Positions 3,634 to 27,905 of a DNA stretch of 32,000 nucleotides are shown piece after piece; the first letter of the stretch is position 1, and every line of letters starts with the position of its first letter. The position numbers and the translations under genes were made by a program. The stretch lies in the NCBI GenBank assembly GCA_000217635.1, contig CP001817.1, forward strand, positions 30,001 to 62,000, read 5' to 3'. Under the pieces are notes generated by a model. It did not search any database, was not told where the DNA came from, and saw nothing but the letters and a program-made list of their open reading frames with translations. This DNA is from Candidatus Saccharimonadota bacterium. GTDB lineage: Bacteria > Pseudomonadota > Gammaproteobacteria > Enterobacterales > Enterobacteriaceae.

Positions 3634-4441
3634 TTTTTTAAAAAATCCTATTTCTTTTTACTATAGAAATTATTATATTATTGAATAATATTTAATTATC
3701 ATATTTATTTTAATAAAAGTCAACTTTTTTTTATTTTTAGATAATATTAAAAATTTTTAATATATATATTTCAATATAAGATATTTATATTATAAATATA
3801 TATTTATATGATAGTTAATATATATAATATATAATCTTTTTTATAATATAAAATTTTATCTATCAGAATATTGATATATTATAAGTCAATAGTAATTTGA
3901 TTTGTTCTATAAATTTATATTATATATTTATATAATTTATATTATTAAAATATCTATTTTTATTATTTTTTTATATATTTAATAAACTTACTTAATATTT
4001 ATTTTTTTATATAAAAATTTATATTAAAATATGTCTAATTAATTATTTGATTAATTGAATTAAGAAATTTTATTTTAATCATTTTTTTAAGAATAATTAT
4101 CTTATAATTAACAATTAATATACCAATTATTATTTTTTTAATAAATATATTTTGAAAAGTTTTATATGAATATAATAGTATTCTTACAAAAAAATTTTAT
4201 GTATTAAATATATAATAAGGTATTTTTTTATAAATTAATATATTTTAAATTTTTTAATAATATTAGTTTGGTTAATAATTCTATTTTACTTTAATTATTT
4301 ATGATTTTTTGCTTTTTTAATATTTTATAATATAAGTTTTATATAATAAATAAAAATTACTTGTATAATTAATGAAATTATTCTTGATTTTTTATTTGTT
4401 AATAATAGTAATAGAATTTTTTTCCATTTAATGAGGTATTT

Positions 4442-5322
4442 ATGCATGATAAAATTTTTAATTTAATAGAATGTAAAAAAGATGTAATAAATTTAAAAAA
4501 TAAAATACAGATATCTTTTGAATTTTTTCCTCCGAAAAATACTGCAATTGATTTATTATTTATCAATTCTATAAGAAAATTAAAAAGTTTTAATCCGAAT
4601 TTTTTTTCTGTGACCCACAGTGTAAATACACTTAATAAAAACGATACTTTTATGATTGTACAAAAAATAAGAAAAATGTTTACAGAGATTACTGTGGCGC
4701 CTCATTTAACTAGTATCGGTTATACTACTACTGATTTAAGAAATATAGCAATAAAATACTGGGCTAAGGGAATAAAAAATATTGTTGCTTTACGGGGGGA
4801 TATACCTCTTAATTATAGAGGGGATAAGATCTATGCTGTAGATTTAATAAAACAATTAAAATACATTGCAGATTTTAATATTTTTGTTGCGGCTTATCCT
4901 GAAATTCATCCCGAAGCGGTTAGTTCAAAACATGATTTAATAAATTTAAAAAATAAAATGGATGTTGGAGCAGAACATGCAATTACACAATTTTTTTTTA
5001 GTATAGAAAAATTTTTACGATTTCGTGATAATTGTCATAAAAATCATATATATATTGATATAATTCCGGGTATTTTACCTATATTAGATATTCAACAATT
5101 AAAGAAGTTTTCAAATATGACTAATGTATATATTCCAAAATATATTTTGGATATTTTTAATAAAAATATTATGGATAAAAAAAATGTACATTAATAAGTA
5201 TTAATATAGCTGTGAATATTATTTTACGGTTATATCAAGAAGGCATAAGAAAATTTCATTTTTATACATTAAACCGTTCAGAACTAAGTATAGGTATATG
5301 TCAGCGTTTAGGTTTAATATAA
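4442..5322 (+). CDS. metF: 5,10-methylenetetrahydrofolate reductase, interrupted by a frameshift in an A8 tract (5177-5184); track ORF ends at 5194
   Basis: Residues 1-250 align along E. coli MetF (SFEFFPP, APHLT, IVALRGD, VAAYPExHPEA, AITQFFF, IIPGILP). After the A8 tract the -1 frame reads [45 protein letters not shown], matching the E. coli C-terminus ([42 protein letters not shown]). Confidence 0.9.
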
Positions 5323-6231
5323 TATTTTTATAAGATATTAATTTTTATTTAATATTAAATAAGTTTTAAAAAAGTATTATTTTAAGATTTAAAGATATAT
5401 TTATTATTAAATTTATTATATTAGTCAATTTTTTTTCTCTTTTTTATTAAATAAAATTTATTTATTAAATATTTATAAAAATAAGATTTTTAAAAAATTA
5501 AGTATTTTATTAAGTATTTTAAAAATAATTAATTTTCATTAATATGATAAACATTTAATATTAATTTTGATAATATTAGTTATGTTTATTAAAAAATTAA
5601 AATGTTTTTTTAAAAAAAATAGTAATTAGATAGTATTCCTATTTTTTTGAATATATTATTTAATTTTTATTTGATAAAACTTTATATTCTAAAAATATAT
5701 TCATTATTGAAGATAATAATTTATTATTTCAATGTATTTTTAATTAATAAAAAAATAGAATTATTTATTATGTTAATTTTGATAAATGATTTTATTTATA
5801 TCAGATGTTTTTTCAGAGGTATCAATATTATATAGATCTATTATATTATTTTTTTAATTTTTTTTAAAAGAAAATTTTTTACTTATAAATTGAATTATTT
5901 TTGATAATTTTTAAGTAAAATATAAGTCTATTTGAGATAATATAAATATATTCAATTTTTATCTAGTTTAAATAAATTAAGTATAGTAAAAATAATATAA
6001 ATTACATCATGAAAAATTTAGATTTTTGTTTTTTTAAGATAAGATTATAAATTTATAGAAAATAATATAATTATTATTTTTTATTATGAACATATAATTT
6101 TTTTATATTAAGGTAAACTATTAAATAATTCATTAAAAATTTTTATAAAATAATATTGATTGCTTTTATTATTTTATTTTTTTTCTAGAATTTAGATTCT
6201 TATTTTTTATAGATAATTTATAGGGTAAAAA

Positions 6232-7506
6232 ATGCATATACAGGATAACAAGAAAGGTACAATTGTTTTAGCGTATTCAGGTGGCTTAGATACATCAGCT
6301 ATTATTCCGTGGATTAAAGAAAATTATAATTTTAATGTAGTTGCATTTGTTGCAGATATAGGGCAATCAAAAAAGGATTTAAAAGGTATTAAAGAAAAAG
6401 CTATTATGTCTGGAGCTTTAGATTGTTATATTGCAGATTTAAAAAATGAATTTGTAGAACAATATGTATATCCAATGTTGTCAGTAGGCGCTTTGTATGA
6501 AGGTAATTATTTATTGGGCACTGCAATTGCTCGTCCATTGATTGCAAAAGCACAATTAAATTATGCTAAAAAAATTAATGCGGTAGGATTAAGTCATGGT
6601 GCTACTGGCAAAGGAAATGATCAAGTACGTTTTGAATTAGCATATACTGCTTTAGATCCTACTTTACAAATTATAGCTCCTTGGCGCGAGTGGATTTTTA
6701 GGTCTAGAGAAGATTTATTAAAAATATTTAAAAGAAAAAATATTAGTACCACAGCTAGTATTACCAAGATATATAGTAAAGATGAAAACATTTTTCATAT
6801 TTCTACAGAAGGAGGAATTTTAGAAGATCCGTGGAATACTGCTAGTAATGATTGCTGGAGTTGGACTACTAATCCTCATAATGCACCAAAACATCCTGAA
6901 GAAATCCATTTAAATATTAAAAGTGGACGTGTAATATCAATTAATGGAAAAAAATTGAATCCTTATAAATGTTTAAAAAAATTAAATAAATTAGGATCAA
7001 AACACGCAATCGGTCGTATTGATATTATAGAAAATCGTTTAGTAGGTATGAAATCGAGAGGTTGTTACGAGACTCCTGGAGGCACAATAATTTATCAAGC
7101 ACTTAGGGCATTAGAGCAATTAACATTAGATCGCGAAAGTATACATTGGAAAAATAAAATTGCATTAGAAATGTCAATGTTAATTTATGATGGTCGTTGG
7201 TTTACACCTTTAAGAGATTGCCTGCAAAAATCTTCAGATATTTTTTCACAATATGTTGAAGGAGAAGTTATTATTGAACTATATAAAGGTTCAGTAATTA
7301 TTTTAAAAAAACGTTCATTTAATTCTTTATATTCTTCTAAATTTGCTACCTTTGGAAATGATAAAGTATATAATCAAAAAGATGCTCAAGGTTTTATTCG
7401 ATTACTTTCATTATCTTCGCGTATTAGAGCATTAAAAAATAAAAATAATATTTTTTTGGAGTATATATATGTCGCTTTGGGGTGGAAGATTTACGAAAGA
7501 TTCTGA
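6232..7506 (+). CDS. argG: argininosuccinate synthase (short, type I form); 3' end overlaps argH by 38 nt
   Basis: 424-aa ORF. The N-terminal [12 protein letters not shown]-pyrophosphatase motif is present, along with [31 protein letters not shown] and DGRWFTP. Confidence 0.94.
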
Positions 7507-13561: not shown

Positions 13562-14603
13562 ATGAAAATTTTAGGTATAGAAACATCTTGTGATGATACA
13601 TCTGTTGCTATTTATGATGATCAATTAGGCGTTATTTTTCATAAAACTTGGGATCAGACTAAAATTCACTCTAGATTTGGAGGTATTATTCCAGAATTAG
13701 CAGCAAGATGTCATTTAAGTCAACTGAATTATCTAATTAAAGAAATATTTTTAAAATTATCTAATTATAACATAAAAAAATATAAAAATAATATTATTGA
13801 TGCTGTTGCATATACCGCGGGACCAGGATTAGCCAGTTCTTTATTAATTGGAGCATCTATTGGTTCTTGTCTTGCTTTTTCTTTAGGAATACCATCTATT
13901 TCAATTAATCATATAGAAGGGCATTTATTTTCAGCTATGATCGGACAACGGAATATTCCTTCCTTTCCTTTTATTGCATTATTAATATCAGGGGGTAATA
14001 CACAGTTGATTTATGTTTCTAATTTAGGTCATTATAAAATTTTAGGGAAAACTTTAGATAATTCTGTTGGTAATACATTTGATTATATCGCAAAATTATT
14101 AGGTTTAGGGTATCCGGGAGGTAAAAAATTATCTAGTTTAGCTCAATATGGTATCTTTGGAAAATATATTTTTCCGCGCCCAATGATTCAACATCATAAT
14201 TTAGATTTTAGCTTTTCAGGGTTAAAAACGTATACAAAGAAAATAATTCATGATAGTAAACAAACGTTTCAGGATAAAGCAGATATTTCTCGAGCTTTTG
14301 AAGACGCGATTATTGATACATTAATAATTAAATGTAAACGTGCTATCCAGCAAAAACACTTAAATTCTTTAGTTATATGTGGAGGTGTTAGTGCAAACTC
14401 TACATTAAGAAAAAAGTTTCGTTCTATAATAACAAAACAAGGTGGAAAAATTTTTTTTCTAAAAAAAATTTTGTACAGATAATGCGGCAATGATTGCGTA
14501 CGTTGGATATTTAAGATATAAGTTAGGTTTATATTCTTCTGATTTTTCAATTAAAGTATATCCTCGTTGGTTAATTAATCAGTTAGATAAATTAAATATA
14601 TAA
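13562..14603 (+). CDS. tsaD: tRNA N6-adenosine threonylcarbamoyltransferase TsaD (YgjD/Gcp), interrupted by a frameshift in an A8 tract (14461-14468); track ORF ends at 14482
   Basis: MKILGIETSCDDTSVAIYDD, AYTAGPGL, HIEGHL, LLISGGNTQL, LGYPGG, FSFSGLKT and GGVSAN are collinear with E. coli TsaD. After the A8 tract the +1 frame reads FCTDNAAMIAYVGYLRYKLG...YPRW..., matching E. coli [21 protein letters not shown]...RPRW. It is divergent from rpsU as in E. coli. Confidence 0.92.
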
Positions 14604-20622: not shown

Positions 20623-20957
20623 TTATACTTGCATATTTATGATTTCTTGATATGAACTGATTAGTTTTTTTCTTATTTGGATGAATGTTTTAATCCATAA
20701 TCCTTCCTGATTTAATTCAATACATTCATTTTTATAACTTTGATAATTATTTTTATTTATTTTTTTTGATAGATTATTAAATTTTATTTTTTTTATATTT
20801 ATCAATGAATTTTTATTTTTTTTATTTTTTTTTTCAGAAGTTGATTAAATATTTTAAAAAATTTATTTTTTACCTTCGGTTTTATAAAATTATTATTTTT
20901 TATTTTTTTAGTATATATTGGTTGTAGTAGGTTGTTTTGTATATCTTTTACATTCAT
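20623..20957 (-). CDS. fliE: flagellar hook-basal body protein FliE, split into two frames at poly(A) tracts (A10/A8 on the coding strand, 20816-20834)
   Basis: The C-terminal 60-aa ORF ends IQIRKKLISSYQEIINMQV, against E. coli IQVRNKLVAAYQEVMSMQV. Upstream in another frame, GAGGTA + ATG at 20957 opens MNVKDIQNNLLQPIYTKKIKNNNFIKPKVKNKFFKIFNQLLKKKIKKIKIH*. The combined length of about 111 aa fits FliE (104 aa in E. coli). Confidence 0.8.
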
Positions 20958-21134: not shown

Positions 21135-22844
21135 ATGGAAATGAAAAATAAAATTATTGCAAAAGAAGATATTAAATATTGGGATAATATTTTTTTGTTA
21201 TTTATTAAAAAATTTTCAATTTTTTATGATTAGTTTTTCTGTTTTTTTATCTTTTATAATTGTATTTTTTTTATGGTTTAATACAATTAATTATGTTGTG
21301 TTATATAATCATTTGTCTGATAAAGATGAATTTTGGGTAATATCACAATTGCAATCTATGAAAATTCCATATAAATTTAATAATATTACTGGAGCTCTTT
21401 TAGTTCCGGAAAATAAAATACATGAGTTACGTTTTCAATTATTAAATAATAATTTAAATAAAGAAAAAATTTATGGTTTTGATTTTTTAAATAATGATAA
21501 ATTTAATGTAGGTCAATTTAATGAAAATTTAAATTATCATCGAGGATTAGAAGGTGAATTATCAAAAACGTTAATGAATATTTTTCCTATTAAATATGCT
21601 CGCGTACATTTATCTTATCAAAAAGATACTAATTTTTTACAAAAAAAAGAGATACCATCAGTCTCTATTGTAATTACTTTGTACCCTAATACTTGTTTAA
21701 AAAAAAATCAAGTCAATTCCATTATTTCCCTAATTACAGGTAGTATAACTAATTTATCTTCGGATCATATTGTAATTGTTGATCAAAATGGAACTTTATT
21801 AAATCAATTATTTTTAAATAAAAAACGATTTTTTAATAATAATATACAAAAACACGCAGATTTTTTAAAAGATTATTATTGGAATCGTATTAACAAAGCT
21901 TTAAAGCCTCTTTTGGGTTCGAAAAATTTTTTTATTCAAATTACTCCGTATATTATGTCATATGTAAAAAAAAATAATATGATATATAAAAATAAAAAAA
22001 ATAAAAGTAAAGCTGTTAATCTATTAAATTTAGTTCCGGATTATTTAAATAATTTAGGAATTTCAAAAAAAAATAATTCTTTAAAAAATATTTCTTCGCA
22101 TAATATATCTAAAAATATTAATGATGTTAATCTGATAAAGGTAAATAAAAATATTAATTCTAAAGCTATTACTAAAAATTATATAATTAATAAAGAACAT
22201 TCAGGAAACTTCAATACATCAAAATTGATAGATCATAGTCAATTTAATAATAATAACGTATATATGAAAAAAAATCATATAATAACGCGTGATGTAAATT
22301 TTTATGAACGTATATTAAATAATAAATTTATTCATTTTTCAATTAAAATATTAGCGAATTACAAAAAAAATGATTTAGGGATTTTAGTTCCATTGACAGA
22401 AAAAGAAAAAGAAAATATTAAAACGATTATTAAGTCAGTAGTAAACTTTTCACATAAACATGGAGATATTTTAGAAATAATAAATATGTTATTTTTTCAA
22501 CCTCATAAATCTACTCATATGTATTCTTTATTTGATTATAAAAATTTTTTTATATCTTATAAATGGACTTTTGTTTTTTTATTTTTATTTCTTTTTTTCT
22601 TTTTTGTGTTAAGAAAAATTTTTTTAATATATATAAAAAGAAATAATATAATGAAAAAAGAACCATTAAAAAATAAAGATAATTTATCTACAGTTTTTGT
22701 TACACAAAAATTATGTTCTACAGAGGTAAAAGAAAAAAATATTTTATTAAATTCACAATATTTTTTTAAAAATAAAAAAAATTGGATATTGATCCTAAAA
22801 TTATCGCAAAAGTTCTTCGGTTATGGATGAAAAATAAAAAATGA
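21135..22844 (+). CDS. fliF: flagellar MS-ring protein FliF; 3' end frameshifted in an A8 tract (22774-22781), 5' start ambiguous (ATG 21135 + shift, TTG 21157, or ATG 21226)
   Basis: The body aligns with E. coli FliF (NHLSDKDEFWVISQLQSMKIPYKF vs SNLSDQDGGAIVAQLTQMNIPYRF; FNENLNYHRGLEGELSKT vs FSEQVNYQRALEGELART; ARVHL). The track ORF ends ...NWILILKLSQKFFGYG*, but the -1 frame after the A8 tract reads LDIDPKIIAKVLRLWMKNKK*, matching E. coli DNDPRVVALVIRQWMSNDHE. That frame ends in an ATGA overlap with fliG. Confidence 0.9.
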
Positions 22845-23813
22845 AATTAAATAATATTCAAAAAAGTGCGCTTTTTCTGATGTCTATCGATATTAATGAA
22901 GCTGTACAAACCTTAGAATATTTTTCTGAAAAAGAAATTTTTCAATTAACACAAGCTATGTTATCTCTCGATACTCGAGAATCTTATAATATTTCGAATA
23001 TAAAAAAAGAATTTTATTATTTTTTAAAGGAGAATAATATTTCTTATTTTAATATTCAGAAAAATATATCTGTATTAATACAAAAAAGGTTAGGTAAAAA
23101 AAAAGGATGCATATTTTTGCAAGATAGTTTATTAAAAATGTCTATTCAAAAAAAGATTGTTTTTTTAGAAAAATTAGATATTCATGATCTATTTTTTTTA
23201 ATTTTTAAGGAACATGAACAAATAATTACAGTTTTATTAATATATTTTTCTAAACTAATATCAGCTAAATTATTATTATTATTTAATTTTAAAAAACGAT
23301 CTATTTTTTTAATAGGCATAGAAAATTTTATAGCGTTAAGTAAAAAAGGTTTGTTAGAATTTAATAAAATTCTTAGAAATTTAATAGAAAAATATACAAA
23401 ATCTGTGATGATTAAAAAAAATACTAAACATATTGTAGGAATTTTACAGTCTTTTGATAAAAAAAATATAAAAGATATTTTAAATAACATTAATAGGGTA
23501 GATAAAAAATTAGTATATAAAATAAATAGTCTTTTGTTTGATTGGAGTGATTTAATTAATATTAGTGATTATGATATTAAATTTATTATTCAAAATATTG
23601 ATATAAAAATATTATATAAAGGATTAAAAGAAATAGATGATGTTATAATTAATAGATTTTATAAAAATTTTTCAGAGTTACAAAAAAAATATTTTTATAA
23701 AAAAAATATAAAAATAAAAATATTTCTAATGTTCAATTCTCTATATTTAAAAAAAATTATTTAATATTATTAAAAATTTTATAAAATTAGGAAAAATATT
23801 TATAAATCAATAA
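22841..23813 (+). CDS. fliG: flagellar rotor/switch protein FliG; C-terminal about 40 codons spread over three frames by two A8 tracts (23699-23706, 23749-23756); track ORF ends at 23764
   Basis: The N-terminus KSALFLMSIDINEAVQTLEYFSEKEIFQLTQAM aligns with E. coli [33 protein letters not shown]. After the first tract the -1 frame gives NISNVQFSIF (cf. RLSQVENEQKA). After the second tract a further -1 frame gives LFNIIKNFIKLGKIFINQ* (cf. ILLIVRRLAETGEMVIG). Confidence 0.85.
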
Positions 23814-23825
23814 TAGGTAATATGT

Positions 23826-24509
23826 ATGAATAACTCTATAAAAAAAAAAAATTGGAAACATTGGAGTCCCGATTCATTATCATCACATCATCCAAAACAT
23901 ATTTTACCTCAAAGATTAAGTATAATAAAAAATACTTCAATTAATATTGATAAACAAAAAAAATTAACGAAAAAAATGTTAAAAAAATACTTGAAAGGGT
24001 ATAAAATTGGATTTGATCAAGGTTATAAAAGTGGATGGTTTCAAGGTTTTAATTCCATTACTCAATCTCATTTTAATAATTATGAAAAATATTTAAAAAT
24101 TTATTTTTTAAATATATTAAAAGAATTTAACAAATCTATTGATGATTTAGACAGTAAAGTAGAGCTAAAAATATTAAAAATAATAGTGACAATATCTAAA
24201 ATTATTTTTTCTAAAACATTATTAATTAATACAACAATAATATTAGATAAAATAAAAAATATAATACAATGTATTAAAAATTCATTAAAAAATCCTAAAC
24301 TATTCATTCATCCATTAAAAAGAAAATTGATCGAAGAAAAATTTGGTACGTTATTAAAATTATACAATTGGAAATTAATAGATGATATGAAAATTAATAT
24401 AAATAGTTGTTATATTCTTACTGATGAAGGTGAAGTAGATGCTACAGTAGAACGGTGTTGGAATGAAATAGAAAGTATATTACTTTTACGGAATGATAAA
24501 AAAATATGA
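23826..24509 (+). CDS. fliH: flagellar export ATPase regulator FliH
   Basis: 227-aa ORF. WKHWSPDSL matches E. coli WKTWTPDDL. The GYxxGxxxG repeats and the C-terminal EGEVDATVERCWNEI (cf. EGDLDASVATRWQEL) are present. It carries an in-frame A12 tract at 23840-23851. Confidence 0.9.
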   Translation: MNNSIKKKNWKHWSPDSLSSHHPKHILPQRLSIIKNTSINIDKQKKLTKKMLKKYLKGYKIGFDQGYKSGWFQGFNSITQSHFNNYEKYLKIYFLNILKEFNKSIDDLDSKVELKILKIIVTISKIIFSKTLLINTTIILDKIKNIIQCIKNSLKNPKLFIHPLKRKLIEEKFGTLLKLYNWKLIDDMKININSCYILTDEGEVDATVERCWNEIESILLLRNDKKI

Positions 24510-25903: not shown

Positions 25904-26361
25904 ATGAAAAGTAGTTATTTAAAAACATTACTATATTTAAAAAAAAATCTCAATTGTCGATTAGAAAAAATATGTATATAATAAAAGATTATGTAGATAA
26001 AAAAAAAATTTTTAATCAAATATTACAATTAAAAAAATATTATGATGAATATTATAATAATTTATATAAATCTCTTATTCATAAGGGAATTATTCAGTAT
26101 CAAGTGAAAGTATATAGAAAATTTCTATATATGTTACAAACGGTTATTTTAAAGCAACAACAATATATTGCATATTATAATAAACAATTAAGTATTACTC
26201 GAAACTTACATAAAAATATGTATATGTATTTTAAAAAATTGTGTATTTTAGAGTCACATATATATCAAAATATACGAAGAATTATGATATTAAAGGAACA
26301 ACGTATATCTGATATTTTAATTGAATCATTTTCATATATTAAAAAAATATTAAATAAGTAA
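25904..26361 (+). CDS. fliJ: flagellar export chaperone/stalk protein FliJ; 5' end in a different frame, joined through an A9 (25939-25947) or A6 (25965-25970) tract; track ORF starts at TTG 25954
   Basis: AGGAAAAG + ATG 25904 opens MKSSYLKTLLYLKKNLNCRLEKICI* (cf. E. coli ALATLKDLAEKEVEDAARLL). The track frame continues ...LQLKKYYDEYYNNL (cf. LKMLIDYQNEYRNNL). The joined length of about 152 aa fits FliJ (147 aa), and the position after fliI fits. Confidence 0.7.
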
Positions 26362-26540: not shown

Positions 26541-27494
26541 ATGAAATTAATTTATGATAATATTCAATTTTCATATCAAAAAAGTTCTATAAATTTAGAT
26601 AATAAAAATATTTCAGATTTTCAGAATAGTGAGTTATTAAAAAAATTTTTATTAAATAGAAAAATTTCATCTTTTAAAAATTTATATGATAATTTATCTT
26701 TAATGTTTAAAAATATATTTAAAAAAAATTTATCTATATTATTTGAATTTACTTATTTATATTTTGAGTATAATAATCAATATCATATAAAACAAATATT
26801 AGTAGAAGAAGAAAGTAATATTTTTCAGTTAAGTCATTCAAAAGAATATTGCATATTAATGGTGCCTCATAATTTTTTTTCTATTTGCACTTATGTTTTA
26901 TTTGGGGGGGGTAACTTAGTTATATATAAAAAACATATATATGATAGTAATAAAATTAATAATCATTTAATTATAAATACTGTATTTGAATCTTTATTTA
27001 TAACAATTAATAGTTTTTTAAAAAAATTTTTTTGTTGTTCTATTAAATATATTTTTAAAAATCAATGTACTACAAAAAATTTTTTTAAAAATAATACTTT
27101 AGATGATTATTTGTTTTTTTTATTTCAAGTGACTTATAAAAATATTAAAGATGTGATTAAAATTTGTATACCGAAAAGTATTTTGTATCATATATCTTTC
27201 AAACCGTATCATAATTATCTTATTTTTAAAAAAAATATTAAAAATATTTGGAATAAAAAAATAGAACATAATATAAAATCGTATATCATATCTTTAAAAG
27301 TAAATGTAATAAGTTATACGATATCATTATCTTATTTTTTAAATTTAAAGGTAGGTGATATATTTTACATTAAAATAATAAAAGATGTATTTGGTTTTAT
27401 TAATGGACAATTATTTTTATTAGGAAAATATGGTATATATCATGGTTATCGTTCATTATATTTTAAACAATTTATTAATAAAGAGGATAAATAT
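26541..27494 (+). CDS. fliM: flagellar C-ring protein FliM-like segment; no stop codon before fliN, so it reads through in frame (single 454-aa ORF 26541..27905)
   Basis: VPHNFFSICTYVLFGGGN aligns with E. coli FSPSLVFIAVDNLFGGDG. LSYFLNLKVGDIFYI...INGQLFLLGKYGIYHGYRSLYFKQFIN aligns with LSQILKLNPGDVLPI...VDGVPVLTSQYGTLNGQYALRIEHLIN. No CheY-binding LSQAEIDALL-type N-terminus is seen. Confidence 0.85.
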
Positions 27495-27905
27495 ATGGAA
27501 CAGAAAGGTTCTATCATGGTTTCAAAAGATAATGAATCTATTATAGAAAAAATAATAAATCAAGAACAAAAGAATAATAAAACATGTAAAAATAAATTAT
27601 TGAATCAAGAGAAATTATTAGATAATATCTCTAAATCTAAAAGTAATTTTTTAGATTTTATAAAAAAAATGAAACCTTTTATGGATATTCCTATTGCTAT
27701 TAAAATTGAATTAGGTACAAAAAAATTAAGTTTAAAAAAACTTTTAAAATTATCTGAAGGATCAATCATTCAATTAAATCAAACAGATACAGTTCCATTA
27801 AAAATATTTATTAATAATTATTTCCTAGCATTAGGGGAATTAGTAATGATTAACGAAGAATATGGGGTACGTATTATAAAGCTTATAGAAAACGTAGTAA
27901 TATAA
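27495..27905 (+). CDS. fliN: flagellar C-ring/export-gate protein FliN (own RBS and ATG, in frame with upstream fliM)
   Basis: AAGAGGA (27481-27487) lies 7 nt upstream of ATG 27495. MDIPIAIKIELGTKKLSLKKLLKLSEGSIIQLNQTDTVPLKIFINNYFLALGELVMINEEYGVRI aligns with E. coli MDIPVKLTVELGRTRMTIKELLRLSQGSVVALDGLAGEPLDILINGYLIAQGEVVVVADKYGVRI. Confidence 0.92.
   Translation: MEQKGSIMVSKDNESIIEKIINQEQKNNKTCKNKLLNQEKLLDNISKSKSNFLDFIKKMKPFMDIPIAIKIELGTKKLSLKKLLKLSEGSIIQLNQTDTVPLKIFINNYFLALGELVMINEEYGVRIIKLIENVVI

Follow-up and report, generated by a model that had tools for sequence, protein, structure and literature searches.

Two bases missing at or near A runs spread the 3' end of fliG over three frames in Buchnera aphidicola BCt, possibly as homopolymer under-calls

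Why would the conserved C-terminus of a flagellar rotor protein lie in reading frames other than the one that encodes the rest of the protein? The question is raised by fliG of Buchnera aphidicola BCt, the symbiont of Cinara tujafilina, within a 32-kb stretch of its genome (contig CP001817.1, positions 30,001 to 62,000; hereafter the window). The window has a G+C content of 21.6%, comes from a genome of 444,925 bp and holds rplJ-rplA-rplK-nusG-secE, tRNAs, metF, argG, argH, rpoD, dnaG, rpsU, tsaD, cca, ligA and gltX as well as the flagellar cluster from fliE to fliR. The zero-frame open reading frame (ORF) of fliG ends in ...FLMFNSLYLKKII, with its stop codon at 23762-64. The last 36 codons of the gene are preserved, but in two other frames, as two bases are missing at or near A runs. 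The frameshifted gene is already public and annotated as an ordinary coding sequence (CDS). The explanation we tentatively favour, at somewhat less than even confidence, is that both bases were lost as homopolymer under-calls in what was probably a 454-only assembly.

The original prediction had named the gene as fliG and had held that its two downstream frames carry the real C-terminus, and both points were borne out by orthologue alignment, tblastn and Pfam; the gene order fliF-fliG-fliH-fliI is also as expected for FliG. Five other Cinara Buchnera have intact FliG orthologues of 325–326 amino acids (aa), and in an alignment with these, a check that had been proposed at the outset, all five match the repaired protein along its full length. 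In the third-frame tail (KKKLFNIIKNFIKLGKIFINQ), 15/21 and 14/21 residues are the same as in the two closest orthologues (67–71%), while identity to the same two is 59% and 53% over the whole protein and 171/288 and 154/288 over residues 1–288. In tblastn searches, the tail showed 70% identity over 20 aa to orthologue P0003 (summed E-value 2e-13) and matched orthologue P0002 with an E-value of 4e-6. The Pfam domains FliG_N, FliG_M and FliG_C occur in this order, and FliG_C is complete only in the repaired product: on repair, the match grows from profile positions 2–71 to 2–108 of 108 and its score from 34.0 to 42.9 bits, a gain that is independent of Buchnera sequences. Both off-frame stretches would be open by chance with a probability of about 1% (11.6% × 9.1%), which is a weak signal alone. 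Judged by this homology, the third-frame tail is the true FliG C-terminus. It corresponds to the last helix of FliG_C and is the best-conserved part of the shifted region. Conservation is weak across all orthologues in the middle segment, which covers the loop that follows the torque helix and the beginning of the last helix. The proposed match of ISNVQ to E. coli LSQVE is weak and was one residue off in the MAFFT alignment; P0005, which has IISNVK in the same columns, gives better support.

The fold comparison was made on P0002, the orthologue with 59% identity, rather than on BCt FliG itself. Its AlphaFold (AF2) model has a predicted local distance difference test score (pLDDT) of 82.6, with helices at residues 279–290 and 297–316. 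The top Foldseek matches of this model are to Salmonella FliG (E-value 7e-12), and its C-terminal part superimposes on 1qc7, the C-terminal domain of T. maritima FliG, at 1.6 Å with a template-modelling (TM) score of 0.88. By these helix positions, the first lesion falls either where the torque helix ends or in the loop after it, and the second inside the last helix.

On rereading the sequence, the two A8 runs, the TAA codons at 23698–23700 and 23748–23750 and the zero-frame stop all lay at the predicted coordinates (Table 1). An extra A in each run does yield a 324-aa product that ends at the TAA at 23811–23813, and this repaired stop lies 12 nucleotides (nt) before the fliH ATG with AGGT between; a TAGG motif upstream of fliH is also kept in two sister Buchnera loci (L001 and L002). 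Two interpretations placed on this anatomy were less secure. The TAA codons upstream of both tracts exist but are not informative, because a T followed by an A run automatically yields TAA in one frame. Nor is the presence of two A8 runs 50 nt apart, which had been pointed out, unusual here, as the window contains 62 sense-strand runs of at least A8 in 25 kb of coding sequence. A further A8 run upstream (23682–23689) is read in frame, and a +1 slip at this run would meet the TAA at 23698–23700.

Table 1. Features of the fliG 3' end and other A runs with single-base lesions, in window coordinates.
Feature	Coordinates	Strand	Basis, or repair and its product
fliG zero-frame ORF, 307 aa	22841..23764	+	Identical to deposited AEH39636.1 / WP_013877773.1
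A8 run, read in frame as Q-K-K	23682..23689	+	Sequence reading
A8 run no. 1; encodes K287-K288, aligned to E. coli D288/D289	23699..23706	+	
Interval holding the first missing base	23699..23726	+	Placement scan, DNA alignment
Middle-segment core, second frame (..SNVQFSIF)	23727..23748	+	Homology
A8 run no. 2, second missing base	23749..23756	+	Bounding stop, homology start, relatives' DNA
Third-frame tail LFNIIKNFIKLGKIFINQ and TAA	23757..23813	+	Homology, Pfam
AGGT Shine-Dalgarno-like motif (23815-18) and fliH ATG (23826)	23815..23828	+	
metF, A8	5177..5184	+	+1 A gives 293 aa with conserved FHFYTLNRSELS tail
tsaD, A8	14461..14468	+	-1 or +2 gives 346 or 347 aa with FCTDNAAMIAYVGY motif
fliE, A8	20816..20823	-	+1 A (coding strand) joins 51 + 60 aa into 111 aa, the relatives' length
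fliF, A8	22774..22781	+	+1 A gives 562 aa, with the FliG-binding tail DIDPKIIAKVLRLWMKNKK back in frame
fliJ 5' part, A9	25939..25947	+	+1 gives 152 aa; both relatives have an in-frame A10

Where exactly are the two bases missing? In a DNA alignment with the two sister loci, BCt is two bases short between TATTTTTAT and TTATTTAATATT. The original prediction had assigned one lesion to each A8 run, and this assignment held for the second run only. There, the deficit is fixed to the run by a target-frame stop at 23748-50 and by homology that begins at 23751, and the relatives have 9 nt at this position (GAAAAAAAA in L002, AAGCGTAAA in L001). For the first lesion, the frame is restored by any single insertion from 23699 to about 23726. 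We used a placement scan, in which a base was inserted position by position and each product was scored against the five orthologues. Placing the base in an A5 run at 23710–23714 (KKNIKNKNIS) gave a score of 287, and a T3 run at 23723–23725 (KKNIKIKIFS) gave 279, compared with 257 for A8 run no. 1. L002 also has the identical A8 run in frame (CAT AAA AAA AAT GTA). The first lesion is not fixed to this run, and homology mildly favours a position downstream of it, maybe by 4–20 nt. The alignments support two separate lesions. We rejected the alternative of one 2-nt deletion in the second run, under which the middle segment would be read in the zero frame: it scored 206 compared with 257–287 for two shifts, and it loses both the SNV motif and a Ser common to 4/5 orthologues (the fifth has Thr).

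The lesion type is not confined to fliG. We identified seven single-base lesions in the 27 genes of the window (two in fliG and one each in metF, tsaD, fliE, fliF and fliJ), all at or beside sense-strand A8/A9 runs. Five are fixed to such a run, with the fliE lesion and the first fliG lesion lying at or beside one, and six of the seven are repaired by adding one base. In every lesioned gene, the downstream frame is pristine and conserved. The lesion is therefore peculiar neither to fliG nor to a rotor that lacks its stator, and two of the other genes hit, metF and tsaD, are conserved and non-flagellar (for a biosynthetic and a tRNA-modification enzyme, respectively). Although 5/7 lesions are in flagellar genes, the enrichment relative to other genes is not significant (p=0.23), and fliH, fliI, fliMN, fliP, fliQ and fliR are intact in BCt. 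The products of metF (250 aa), tsaD (306 aa), fliF (557 aa) and fliG (307 aa) were deposited as ordinary CDSs. The window holds no lesion intermediates, only single lesions with a pristine tail or fully eroded sequence (3634–4441 and 5195–6231), so these lesions do not resemble steps along a path of decay.

Some details of the affected genes are as follows. The annotated metF (window 4442–5345) corresponds to AEH39625.1, and its repaired tail reads ...FHFYTLNRSELSIGICQRLGLI. For tsaD (window 13562–14602; AEH39631.1), the lesion is the only one of opposite or ambiguous sign. On the minus strand, fliE (window 20623–20957) apparently has no CDS in the original record, where the accession numbers run from gltX to fliF. 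In fliF (window 22774–22844), the FliG_N-binding segment, encoded by the last 20 codons, is out of frame; its counterpart in the relatives is AAAAAGAAA or AAAAATAAG. For fliJ (window 25904–26361), it is the first 14 codons (MKSSYLKTLLYLKK) that are out of frame with the remainder.

Sister genomes provided a direct comparison. Across the six genes from fliE to fliJ, frameshifts were present at 5/21 A8–A9 runs in BCt and at 0/35 in two sister genomes (Fisher p=0.005), and the same contrast with firmly localised lesions only is 3/21 vs 0/35 (p about 0.05). The BCt fliG lesions are unshared, since fliG is in frame in L001, L002 and three further orthologues. The relatives' own frameshifts are at longer runs, A11 and A15. 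An A11 frameshift in fliJ is common to L001 and L002 (both at about 6140–6160), where BCt has an in-frame A10 (25999–26008); by its sharing, this is a candidate for a conserved frameshift maintained by slippage. In fliH, a split into 52 + 160 aa at an A15 run is present at 4100–4230 of L002 and 1373–1500 of L003, which come from two Logan assemblies of different runs (SRR21069242 and SRR21069211) and whose contigs differ at 7/2744 bases. An exact-protein look-up of the FliG ORF, FliH, FliI, FliQ and FliP returned no second assembly of the BCt strain, and a run-length-tolerant DNA pattern for BCt had no match in metagenome contigs.

Has the displaced tail been under relaxed selection? The nearest orthologues are only 53–59% identical and synonymous sites are saturated for a ratio of non-synonymous to synonymous rates (dN/dS), so we used three-taxon p-distances. 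On the BCt branch, the distance was 0.19 for residues 1–288, 0.43 for the 15 residues between the lesions, in which the two intact relatives also differ most from each other, and 0.12 for the last 21 residues. The last 21 residues thus showed no relaxation on this branch (0.12 vs 0.19), which implies that the lesions are absent in vivo, very recent, or bypassed. Conservation of the last helix argues against long-standing decay.

The torque helix itself has changed in the whole clade. A gap-free alignment with E. coli FliG agreed with the original prediction that the acidic pair D288/D289 is replaced by K/K in BCt, and all five Cinara Buchnera orthologues have K or N in these columns. E. coli R297 is replaced by S in BCt and 4/5 orthologues (T in P0006), and R281, which is not conserved, is L in BCt. 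BCt and its two closest relatives retain K264, the sole survivor in BCt among K264, R281, D288, D289 and R297. It is mainly through charged residues on the torque helix that rotor and stator make contact (PMC7355467), and motA, motB and fliC are reported to be lost from all Buchnera lineages (PMC8109811). The suggestion that the charge loss fits a rotor without a stator therefore holds, but as a property of the clade and not of the frameshifted gene; we regard it as a tidy, expected sign of a stator-less rotor in Cinara Buchnera. The AAA AAA of A8 run no. 1 encodes precisely the two lysines at D288/D289, so loss of the acidic pair under A+T pressure helped to make the slippery run. Compared with the motor subdomain of E. 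coli and Salmonella FliG (alphaC3-6, with alphaC5 as the torque helix), the domain order and fold are the same, but BCt FliG lacks the MotA-facing charges (D288/D289 to K/K, R297 to S, R281 to L).

The original prediction posed the choice as frequent slippage or an under-called A9, and these are the right alternatives. We favour the under-call, with the reservation given above, because the lesions hit unrelated genes, 6/7 are one base short, and they are in excess over the sisters; runs of 8–9 nt are also the kind of homopolymer that 454 under-calls affect. A9 runs would have been called as A8 in a pyrosequencing-only genome, and both fliG bases would be missing only from the assembly, like those of the other single-base poly(A) lesions that recur across the window in genes otherwise pristine. 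The fliG product in the organism would then be 324 aa long; it would keep the FliG fold but, as in all Cinara Buchnera, have lost its stator-facing charges, and it would act as a structural component of a basal body that serves export only and does not rotate. We infer the platform and the true run lengths, in contrast to the anatomy, the shifted-frame homology and the window pattern, which were observed. C. tujafilina DNA was sequenced with 454 FLX/Titanium by the same laboratory (PMC4122931), and that laboratory's 2011 sister genome was 454-only, with Sanger reads just for contig joins (PMC3213167). Several observations weigh against under-calling. The platform of the BCt genome is presumed from this same-laboratory work, and the excess over the sister genomes rests on assemblies of unverified platform. 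Longer runs are in frame, including all of those of 10–12 nt in the window, though pyrosequencing should miscall them at least as often: we found no frameshift at the other 23 sense-strand poly(A) runs of at least 9 nt, and none at the 19 sense-strand poly(T) runs of at least 8 nt (15 T8 and 4 of at least 9 nt). The lesion contrasts between A8 and longer runs and between A and T runs are not significant, however (p=0.24 and p=0.19). For the first fliG lesion, the best fit is to the A5 or T3 run, and a platform error is unlikely in runs this short. In addition, sister Buchnera have genuine poly(A) frameshifts in flagellar genes.

If the lesions are real, either they are corrected during expression or they are not. 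Correction, which we consider possible but doubtful, would have RNA polymerase add an A at the A8 runs, or the ribosome slip by -1 on A_AAA_AAU, so that a minority of products would be the full 324-aa FliG. Such phenotypic rescue has been shown for other genes of Buchnera and Blochmannia (Tamas et al, 2008, PNAS; Wernegreen et al, 2010, MBE), which resemble fliG in their sense-strand poly(A) run within an AT-rich endosymbiont gene, in the single-base lesion with an intact, conserved downstream frame, and in a correction by an added A. There, 12–50% of transcripts are corrected at long poly(A) runs (Tamas et al, 2008, summarised in PMC5009743), or about 30% (PMC3017870), and transcriptional insertions in Buchnera concentrate in A/T runs and increase exponentially with run length (PMC5574713). 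All lesions but one need +1, the direction that slippage supplies, the fliG tail has not decayed, the fliJ A11 frameshift common to L001 and L002 looks maintained, and Buchnera annotators routinely treat such genes as functional (bioRxiv 10.1101/2022.08.28.505559). However, the fliG runs are only A8, compared with 9–10 nt or more in the published cases and A11 and A15 in the relatives, and fliG has two lesions, unshared with its sisters and known here from the genome sequence alone. A8 is the lower limit for slippage by bacterial RNA polymerase, with almost no rescue at A8 and none detectable below it for the E. coli enzyme (PMC6260861). Corrections also multiply on one mRNA (e.g., 5% × 5% = 0.25%). 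At two A8 runs double correction would thus be very rare, yet the tail is conserved. Traverse & Ochman found no frame-restoring transcription error in Buchnera (PMC5574713), and slippage at the A8 run would substitute up to about 7 residues if the first lesion belongs to the A5 or T3 run. A stronger version, which we regard as improbable, is that about a quarter of the window's genes, including tsaD and metF, are decoded through a constitutive +1 A at runs down to A8, twice per mRNA for fliG; this would point to an unusually slippage-prone RNA polymerase (or ribosome) and to selection on a mixed transcript pool. Programmed -1 ribosomal frameshifting of the dnaX type at A-rich heptamers appears very improbable to us. 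A_AAA_AAU is present, as NNU AAA AAA AAU in the zero frame at the metF and fliF runs and both fliG A8 runs, but no stimulatory RNA structure was predicted 3' of either fliG run (z-scores +1.0, +0.55 and -0.2), the lesions are not conserved and the relatives are in frame, and the phase of the heptamer follows simply from AAA AAA AAA having lost one A.

Were the lesions real and uncorrected, BCt FliG would be a 307-aa protein lacking the last helix and the final part of the torque helix. This truncation, about as doubtful in our view as rescue of real frameshifts, could be tolerated in a rotor that no longer meets a stator, or could mark early loss of the flagellar cluster, where fliE, fliF and fliJ are also hit. 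It is consistent with the reported absence of motA, motB and fliC in all Buchnera (PMC8109811), with torque-helix charges already lost in the clade, with the loss of many flagellar genes by the related BCc (PMC3246468), and with the non-significant majority of lesions in flagellar genes. It also accommodates the short run that best fits the first lesion, and an inter-lesion segment that is the least conserved and has a long BCt branch. However, the last helix is conserved across Cinara Buchnera and unchanged in BCt, which is unexpected if it has long been untranslated; metF and tsaD show the same lesion type; and fliH, fliI, fliMN, fliP, fliQ and fliR remain intact. Seven fresh lesions in 27 genes without secondary damage would also require an improbable burst of very recent events.

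Every one of these readings is of a known kind, either a poly(A) frameshift of an endosymbiont gene or a homopolymer sequencing error. The type III secretion genes mxiE, spa13, spa33 and mxiA of Shigella offer a further parallel, as export-machine genes in which A/T runs join or split frames in the RNA (PMC5009743). There, slippage alters product amounts and ratios and, for spa33 and mxiA, gives truncated products (PMC5009743), while BCt fliG has two lineage-specific lesions. Should the lesions prove real, fliG would be among the rare genes that depend on two independent corrections of frame, and BCt would carry an unusually high load of short-run poly(A) frameshifts, a gauge of how far phenotypic rescue buffers genome decay. 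If they are artefacts, the BCt record and the RefSeq proteins derived from it hold truncated or split genes (fliG, fliF, metF, tsaD and the split fliE), and such truncated genes can mislead gene-loss analyses and metabolic reconstructions that use this reference genome.

Elsewhere in the window, 3634–4441 and 5195–6231 are ORF-free and very A+T-rich. The second lies between metF and argG, an interval that in other Buchnera presumably contains argE, argC and argB, and it is probably a fully eroded remnant of lost genes. FliM (residues 47–302) and FliN (377–450) are encoded on one ORF of 454 aa (window 26541–27905), and the same long ORF starts correspondingly in L001 (454 aa) and L002 (431 aa), so that, from these ORFs, it looks like a fliM-fliN fusion in this clade. 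Finally, the argG and argH ORFs overlap by 38 nt (7469–7506), and argG exceeds its family profile by about 20 aa.

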